Assembly: GCF_030013205.1 (NCBI RefSeq)
Contig: NZ_CP122648.1
DNA from: Escherichia coli
Lineage (GTDB): Bacteria > Pseudomonadota > Gammaproteobacteria > Enterobacterales > Enterobacteriaceae
DNA length: 64,000 nucleotides
Strand: one strand, 5' to 3'
Below the pieces are notes generated by a model. That model saw only the letters and a list, made by a program, of their open reading frames with translations, was not told the origin of the DNA and ran no database searches. Of the stretch, positions 17,938 to 19,768 are shown piece after piece; positions within the stretch are counted from its first letter, which is position 1, and every line of letters begins with the position of its first letter. Made by a program: the position numbers and the translations under genes.

Positions 17938-19768
17938 ACAGTCTGATTTCCCTGCGGGTTGATCGGTAAAATAAGCGTGAAGGTTGCGCCGTAGCCCGGC
18001 AAACTGGCGACGCGAATATCACCCTGATGGGCATTAATGATGCGTTGACTTAACGCCAGACCAAGCCCGGTTCCTGAGGCTTTGGTGGTGAAAAAGGGAT
18101 CGAAGATCTTTTTTTGCAGCGAGAGATCAATGCCACAGCCGTTGTCCTCTATCGAAATGGCCTGTTGTGAGTCGCTGTATTGCCAGGTTTGAATGCGAAT
18201 TTTCCCTCGTGCGCTGATAGCCTGGACGGCATTGATCAGGATATTCAGTAGTACCTGTTTGAGCAGTTCACGATCGGCGTTAATCGGGTTTAATTCATTA
18301 TCCAGTTCGCTTATGAAGTCGACCCGCGCTTGTACGCCGGCGGTTTGTACCAGTACCAGAGTTTCTTCAACCAATGCATTGAGACTGACTTGTTGCCATT
18401 GACTGTGGCGTGGACGTGAAAATTCGAGCAATTGCTGAATAACTTTGTTAATTGAATCGATTTCTTTGAGTACTACGGACAGATATTCCTGATGTATTAG
18501 GTCGCTGGTTTGTTGGCGCAAGATCTGTACATAACCACGAATAGCCGTTAGCGGATTACGTACTTCATGCGCGACGCCAGCCATCAGCTCACCCAGTGTG
18601 GCGAGGCGTTCTGCTTGCGCCATGCGGCGCTGGGTTTCTTTGCGGGCAGTTAAATCAGAGAAAATCACCAAAGCACCTATCATTTCACCATGCGTGTTAT
18701 GAATACGACTGGTAGTGACACTGAGTTCAATGGTGCGGTCACGGCCTGGAAAACTGATCTCCAGCGCTACATGTTCGGTGCCATGTTCCAGCGTATCCAG
18801 TACTGGACTGTAGAACTGAGTATTGTCGAACAACATGGAGTAAGGCTGCCCTACCAGTTCATGACGTTGATAGCCAGTGATGACTTCTGCTGCCGGGTTC
18901 ATGGTGGTTACATCACCCTGGCGGTCAATGGCAATGACGCCATCGGCAGCGTTTTCAATAATCAGATCGTTAAGTGTCCGCGTTTCACGCAGTGCCTGGG
19001 CGAGGTTGTTAACACTCTGACTGATTTGCCCCATTTCACCGGGCAATTGTGGTAATCGAGTGGGAATATTTTGCGCCAGAGTCGAGAGGCCATCGGTGAT
19101 GATATCAATATTGGCGCTCAGGCGACGGGAGAAAAGGACAATCAACAGCAGGCTTATCAGCAAACCGGCGGTGAGCACAATGATAATCCTCACATCCATT
19201 TTCCAGGCCTGGCGGCGAATATCTTCGGTTAATTCATTGGCCCAGATATAGCCGAGGATTTCACCATTACGCTCAATGGGGATCATTGAATTCAAAATAT
19301 CGCCGCGCACCTGCCTGAATAAACCAAAGGGGTATTTGTACGCATGACTTCGCGACCAGGGTGATCTGCGGCAATGGTAACGCCGACATTATTCTGATAT
19401 AGCGCTGAAGGCGCGTAGGTGATTATCGCATCCAGTGTTTTGTTGTAATAACCAGCGCCGATGCTAGGGAAGGCGTGAGTGATATTTTCGGTAATGGGGG
19501 CAAGTTCTGCATTTAATGCGCGGATACGCTCCTCACGTGGTAAGTCGATGTAGAGATCATAGCGATCGCCTAGTGCCTGATTAAGCAGGTTGACCACGGC
19601 AGAAAGTTTTTTCTCTTTTTCAGATAAGACTGCTGAACGTCCTTCTGTTTCTACGATATAACCAATAGTAAGCGTTGGGACAATGACCATCAGGATTGCC
19701 ATCAGGATCATTTGATTGCGTAAGCGGCGTGGATAAATCCACTTCATATAATGCATGCTGAAATCCAC
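17934..19768 (-). pseudogene. atoS: sensor histidine kinase AtoS, reading frame broken by an apparent 1-nt deletion
   Basis: Two same-strand ORFs (19292..19768, then 17934..19310) together give an AtoS-like protein (TM N-terminus, PAS, H-box GVAHEVRNPL, ATPase G-boxes). At about 19313-19318 the minus strand reads TATTCAGGCAGGTGCGC; frame A ends ...YSGRCAAIF-stop, frame B continues QVRGDILNSM. Confidence 0.6.

Follow-up and report, generated by a model that had tools for sequence, protein, structure and literature searches.

A probable slipped-strand loss of one CAGG unit interrupts atoS in a pig-associated lineage of Escherichia coli

In an atoS-knockout host the ato promoter is unresponsive to acetoacetate (PMC7618054), and atoSC deletion mutants are unable to catabolise short-chain fatty acids and show pleiotropic changes in motility and stress tolerance (PMC3118216). 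The atoS gene is also a frequent target in laboratory evolution, including adaptation to butyrate in long-term stationary phase (LTSP) and the LTEE (long-term evolution experiment) (PMC10321620, PMC5406848, PMC11213340). Alleles of that kind are missense changes, such as L228P/R in the HAMP domain, and enable the use of butyrate in combination with fadR mutations. Here we describe an atoS allele of a different kind, a truncating frameshift in the presumed sensor domain, found in a 64,000-nt stretch of Escherichia coli DNA (contig NZ_CP122648.1, assembly GCF_030013205.1), which we call the window. We consider it highly probable that this is a genuine inherited loss-of-function allele, created by the slipped-strand loss of one CAGG unit.

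The window copy of atoS (17934..19756, minus strand) lies between rcsC and atoC-atoDAEB, as does the intact K-12 gene, carries the same HAMP-PAS-HisKA-HATPase_c set and differs from it by 22 single-nucleotide polymorphisms (SNPs) over 1.8 kb. However, intact atoS has 1827 nt and encodes 608 aa in both K-12 and strain CFSAN018748, whereas the window copy is 4 nt shorter (1823 nt). It is without one CAGG unit (nt 440-451), and a single uninterrupted frame of 608 codons is absent, the break falling after codon 149. Two consecutive minus-strand open reading frames (ORFs) jointly cover the gene, as a preliminary description of this DNA had stated, and the ORF list and the translations agree on this. 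The upstream ORF is listed at 19292..19768 (minus strand, 158 aa), opening at a GTG; the native start is the ATG at 19756 (MHYMKW...), 4 codons inside the listed GTG, and 154 codons remain from that ATG. This N-terminal piece (19292..19756, minus strand) consists of 149 native residues and the out-of-frame CAAIF, with a TGA at 19294..19292. The C-terminal ORF (17934..19310, minus strand) encodes 458 aa from a GTG at 19310 and has an in-frame ATG at 19286. The two ORFs, whose translations are both AtoS sequence, overlap over 19292..19310. Their minus-strand junction reads TATTCAGGCAGGTGCGCGGC, in the longer context ...CCCCTTTGGTTTATTCAGGCAGGTGCGCGGCGATATTTTGAATTCAATG...; frame 1 gives ...LVYSGR-CAAIF-stop and frame 2 runs on as VRGDILNSM. 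The earlier reading of this junction, YSGRCAAIF and a stop in one frame beside an open second frame, is thus present in the sequence.

The size of the lesion had been read differently. The preliminary description proposed a 1-nt deletion that one extra G would repair, and offered a genuine mutation or a homopolymer-type assembly error as its origin. Alignment with the intact alleles of K-12 and CFSAN018748 gives instead a 4-nt gap with one CAGG unit gone, the intact allele being TTCAGGCAGGCAGGTG and the window TTCAGGCAGGTG. The ancestral tract TT-CAGG-CAGG-CAGG-TG (atoS nt 440-451, codons 147-151) is reduced to TT-CAGG-CAGG-TG, and the residual (CAGG)2 tract, CAGGCAGG, is placed by alignment at 19310..19317 (minus strand), where the unit that went cannot be assigned within the repeat. 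In megablast searches with a 1901-nt query and a 121-nt junction query, the closest lesion-free matches span 1905 and 125 nt, respectively. Since intact alleles are 4 nt longer, the difference is therefore 4 nt and not 1, and the alignment rules out both the 1-nt deletion and the homopolymer error. An extra G does restore the frame arithmetically (-4 +1 = -3), but the result is not the ancestral sequence. This case illustrates how a 4-nt repeat-unit event can lie behind a frame offset of one. Furthermore, there is no homopolymer at the junction; the only runs of at least 6 identical bases in the gene are an A6 at nt 145 and an A7 at nt 1642, both distant. Of the two origins first offered, genuine mutation stands, while the homopolymer error fails on the missing homopolymer and on the presence of the same allele in 25 complete genomes.

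Like classical slipped-strand indels, the gap removes exactly one repeat unit inside a tandem repeat, contraction and expansion alleles both occur at the tract, and the change recurs on independent haplotypes, as detailed below. The loss of one unit from a three-unit tetranucleotide repeat bears the signature of slipped-strand mispairing. During replication, mispairing in (CAGG)3 would have dropped one unit, leaving the 4-nt deletion. Translation would then exit the native frame after residue 149, add 5 wrong residues and stop.

The distribution of the allele was examined by megablast of atoS against 5426 complete E. coli genomes, with atoS detected in 3930, and allele frequencies are given relative to 3927 atoS-bearing complete E. 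coli genomes. The (CAGG)2 junction is present in 25 of these 3927, and a second query, built on the K-12-like E2386 allele as the most divergent background, returned exactly the same 25 carriers. Seventeen come from pigs and share 99.9-100% identity with the window over 1901 nt: K_EC180, O139:H1 strains W13-16 and P15-25, EC556/571/581, and eleven strains named 'ETEC' (enterotoxigenic E. coli). The other eight are GF31, 500111, E1, 214-4, FORC_042, 2018-05-5CC, VTB97420v and E2386. In K_EC180, atoS (IGX36_RS08395, NZ_CP062203.1) carries a pseudogene flag and the note 'frameshifted', and is 100% identical to the window over 1901 nt, with no difference anywhere in the gene; over its first 50 kb the window has 99.998% identity to this pig isolate (1 mismatch). 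The same RefSeq note stands on atoS in 9 of the 9 carriers inspected, namely K_EC180 and the eight carriers outside the pig lineage. By this comparison with K_EC180 and the 16 related pig ETEC / O139:H1 genomes, the window belongs to a clonal lineage of pig-associated E. coli (porcine ETEC / O139:H1) in which the (CAGG)2 allele is fixed.

The same distribution bears on whether the four missing bases are a consensus error of assembly or sequencing, the isolate's own atoS being intact. Indels are the commonest type of consensus error in long-read assemblies, and the reads of the window's own assembly were not inspected, so that error is excluded indirectly, through the agreement of other assemblies. 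However, the bases are missing from a tetranucleotide repeat rather than a homopolymer, and more than one assembly has the allele. It is identical in 17 near-identical pig-lineage genomes from several accession series (CP062203, CP08023x, AP0274xx and CP1226xx-CP1229xx), which suggests independent projects, and it occurs in 8 further genomes. In addition, a systematic error would not cluster as these carriers do, with 17 of the 25 among 3927 genomes in one pig lineage. A lineage-restricted deletion of a non-homopolymer repeat unit that recurs across many assemblies is therefore not an assembly error, and we regard this explanation as extremely improbable.

The carriers do not share one atoS background. 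The window allele differs from the intact allele of CFSAN018748 by a single SNP, the lineage-specific missense change G98S (19465, minus strand; atoS nt 292 G->A), which is situated in the N-terminal fragment, while it lies 19-25 SNPs from the 8 other carriers. Over 3.1 kb comprising the rcsC start and atoS, the carriers form 5 haplotype groups separated by 5-39 SNPs: the window lineage, GF31/E1, 500111, 214-4/FORC_042/2018-05-5CC/VTB97420v, and E2386. For the GF31, 500111 and FORC_042 haplotypes there are many intact alleles that differ by the 4-nt gap alone (1827-nt span, 99.8% identity), and E2386 is 1 SNP from intact K-12. Thus, an intact twin, 0-1 SNP away, was found for all 4 haplotypes tested. 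A single origin of all carriers was rejected on these grounds, the atoS haplotypes being up to 25 SNPs apart and each of the 4 tested having its intact twin. Spread of the deletion by recombination was also considered. In E2386, K-12-type SNPs at nt 432 and 478 flank the deletion, so that import from the window haplotype would need a recombination tract of less than 46 nt, which is implausible. For GF31/E1 and 500111 the local SNPs are not strictly decisive, but with intact twins known, a new deletion is the more economical reading. At least 5 independent contractions are the simplest reading of these haplotypes.

The tract has also changed in the opposite direction. Two isolates from swine faeces, ZF31 and ZF34, have a reciprocal expansion to (CAGG)4; in ZF34 (NZ_CP047461.1) the four units lie at 1854..1869 of the extracted locus L014, and atoS is annotated as a frameshifted pseudogene. 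Together, the 25 contractions and 2 expansions amount to about 0.7% of atoS-bearing genomes. From these alleles, the (CAGG)3 tract is a modest mutational hotspot that slips both ways, with contraction arising independently in other E. coli lineages and expansion to four units in at least one.

Contraction in at least 5 backgrounds and expansion in ZF31/ZF34 at one tract could also be taken to mean that (CAGG)n is a contingency locus, a reversible phase-variation switch of short-chain fatty acid sensing. However, classical phase-variable genes have tetranucleotide tracts far longer than 3 units, while that of atoS has just three, and variants make up only about 0.7% of genomes. Furthermore, (CAGG)2 is kept in 17 of 17 pig-lineage genomes with no revertant, and CFSAN018748, which has nt 292 G like every other allele compared, looks like a sister lineage and not like a revertant. 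Neither a long tract nor high-frequency reversible switching was found, which fits a hotspot and not a programmed switch, and phase variation is highly improbable here.

The consequences for the protein were judged from domain matches and from the reading frames. In a Pfam scan the downstream fragment has HAMP (209-259), PAS (265-369), HisKA (389-451) and HATPase_c (496-600), the same as the intact protein, and the HAMP match is under the curated cut-off in both. The Pfam scan found no domain in the upstream fragment. Hydrophobic stretches at about residues 15-35 and 187-207 were read by eye from the translation. The N-terminal fragment holds the first of them and most of the presumed periplasmic region, while the C-terminal ORF holds the second; residue 149, where the frame breaks, thus lies between them, within what is presumed to be the periplasmic sensor region. 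The membrane and sensor portion at the N-terminus would be severed from a C-terminal portion comprising the second membrane segment and the HAMP-PAS-HisKA-HATPase signalling domains.

By synteny, identity and domain content the locus is an atoS pseudogene, the intact frame alone being lost. It stands between rcsC and atoC-atoDAEB in an ORF map collinear with the K_EC180 annotation, a match of 95% identity or more over at least 80% of the region is found in 3922 genomes, and the downstream fragment has the HAMP-PAS-HisKA-HATPase_c architecture. The rest of the ato locus is complete. The atoC gene (16552..17937, minus strand, 461 aa) is full length, its ATG overlapping the atoS stop (ATGA), and atoD, atoA, atoE and atoB (12510..16356, minus strand) encode 220, 216, 440 and 394 aa, equal to the annotated unflagged lengths. 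From the atoS-knockout and atoSC-deletion literature, loss of acetoacetate induction of atoDAEB is therefore predicted: AtoC would no longer be activated by acetoacetate and atoDAEB would stay uninduced. In addition, the premature stop lies 1.36 kb upstream of atoC, and with about 1.36 kb of atoS untranslated, polarity and lost translational coupling may cut atoC expression; a polar effect of this kind is plausible. If loss of function holds, the pig-associated lineage, in which the (CAGG)2 allele is fixed, would be impaired in using acetoacetate and short-chain fatty acids.

With ALTERNATIVES considered, we weighed translation restart, ribosomal frameshifting, phase variation (discussed above) and relaxed selection as readings of the function of the split gene. 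Restart at ATG 19286 or GTG 19310 would yield a truncated AtoS, blind to acetoacetate, that still acts as kinase or phosphatase on AtoC, so that ato regulation would be altered but not abolished. The downstream ORF is complete and contains all catalytic domains, and in-frame starts lie beside the stop, ATG 19286 5 nt after it and GTG 19310 before it. Weak Shine-Dalgarno pairing does not disqualify these starts, because the native atoS start is also weak (-3.1 kcal/mol, against -2.1 for ATG 19286 and -2.5 for GTG 19310). In addition, adaptive changes have repeatedly hit atoS in laboratory evolution (PMC10321620, PMC5406848). However, the atoS alleles known to be activating carry missense changes in HAMP (L228P/R) and are not truncated (PMC10321620, supplementary tables). 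A gain of function was rejected on the same kind of evidence, the LTSP butyrate-adaptation tables listing atoS HAMP missense changes and no truncations. Moreover, there is no visible selection signal, the non-pig carriers occur in small groups of 1-4 genomes, and two carriers have further insertion sequence (IS) damage to atoS or atoC. A fragment without the first membrane segment would also be of doubtful insertion into the membrane. Taken together, a functional restarted kinase is very unlikely. A related proposal, that recurrent loss of the sensor domain may be selected in gut niches such as the pig intestine, with a kinase restarted at ATG 19286 leaving AtoC signalling rewired (signal-independent or phosphatase-locked) and the repeat acting as a low-frequency evolutionary switch, is speculative and very unlikely.

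A -1 ribosomal frameshift at the native C_CCT_TTG (19331..19325) would rescue near-full-length AtoS at a low level. Read in the upstream frame, this motif has the form X_XXY_YYZ, and there is no stop in the downstream frame from at least 19340 onward; by manual reading, the product of a -1 slip would be uninterrupted, with one residue fewer and about six substituted. However, C_CCT_TTG belongs to normal atoS in the intact alleles aligned, so that it did not evolve for recoding, and the substituted residues would fall in the sensor domain. Within the 19310..19292 overlap there is no slippery heptamer of the form X_XXY_YYZ, stimulatory elements not having been searched for. Transcriptional slippage was likewise rejected, the A6 and A7 runs of the gene being distant from the junction. 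Rescue by frameshifting is, in our view, extremely unlikely.

Some points weigh against an inherited loss-of-function allele, besides the uninspected reads mentioned above. The downstream 458-codon ORF is free of further lesions, although this is expected if the event is recent. The in-frame ATG at 19286, 5 nt past the premature stop, makes some translation of a truncated kinase possible. Furthermore, the independent events were counted from local haplotypes and not from a phylogeny of whole genomes.

Among the carriers, an IS1 truncates atoC in GF31 (3434..4121 of the extracted locus L004) and another IS1 lies in the atoS 3' end of 2018-05-5CC (3158..3918 of L009). This extra IS1 damage in two carriers supports relaxed selection, or the continued decay of a dead locus. 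Among the top matches, other IS insertions in atoS (IS1, IS3 or ISEc31) are present in 14EC001, PS2Canimalfeces12, FAHZZU6014 and E92/E94. In 14EC001 (NZ_CP024127.1), an IS3-family element with the terminal sequence TGAACCGCCCCGGG... is inserted inside the atoS (CAGG)3 tract (640..1960 of locus L013), flanked by a duplicated 3-bp target (GGC). This lesion shares its place with the CAGG loss but is of another kind, and 14EC001 was rejected as a further (CAGG)2 carrier, its (CAGG)3 being intact but interrupted by the IS. Moreover, atoS was undetectable by megablast in 1496 of the 5426 complete E. coli genomes (about 28%). Repeat slippage, IS insertions and absence from about 28% of genomes indicate that E. 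coli often loses the ato sensor in nature.

Replication slippage is a textbook mechanism, and public annotation already labels this very allele 'frameshifted'; both are thus known, and the significance of the allele is slight beyond its correct annotation. Our literature searches on atoS frameshifts or pseudogenes found no description of the (CAGG) site, and its recurrence at (CAGG)3 may be unreported, as a minor population-genetic note. That the CAGG repeat of atoS appears to have slipped independently in at least 5 E. coli backgrounds is a mildly useful general point.

Two other regions of the window were noted. Collinearity with K_EC180 stops at 51494, 19 nt inside the K_EC180 tRNA-Pro gene, and ARAGORN found no intact tRNA in 51000..64000. 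From 51495 to 64000 the window appears to hold a phage-related integrative element, located at tRNA-Pro and missing from K_EC180. Its ORFs with phage family matches, all on the minus strand, are a phrog_7694 protein (53365..55401) with further matches to phage lysin and transglycosylase families in its C-terminal part, a primase/helicase (59117..60529), a protein with a repressor-like C-terminus (61193..62692) and an integrase (63406..63975). At the other end of the window, gyrA (383..3010) encodes Ser83 and Asp87 within the first 100 GyrA residues, which we take to be the wild-type, quinolone-susceptible residues.
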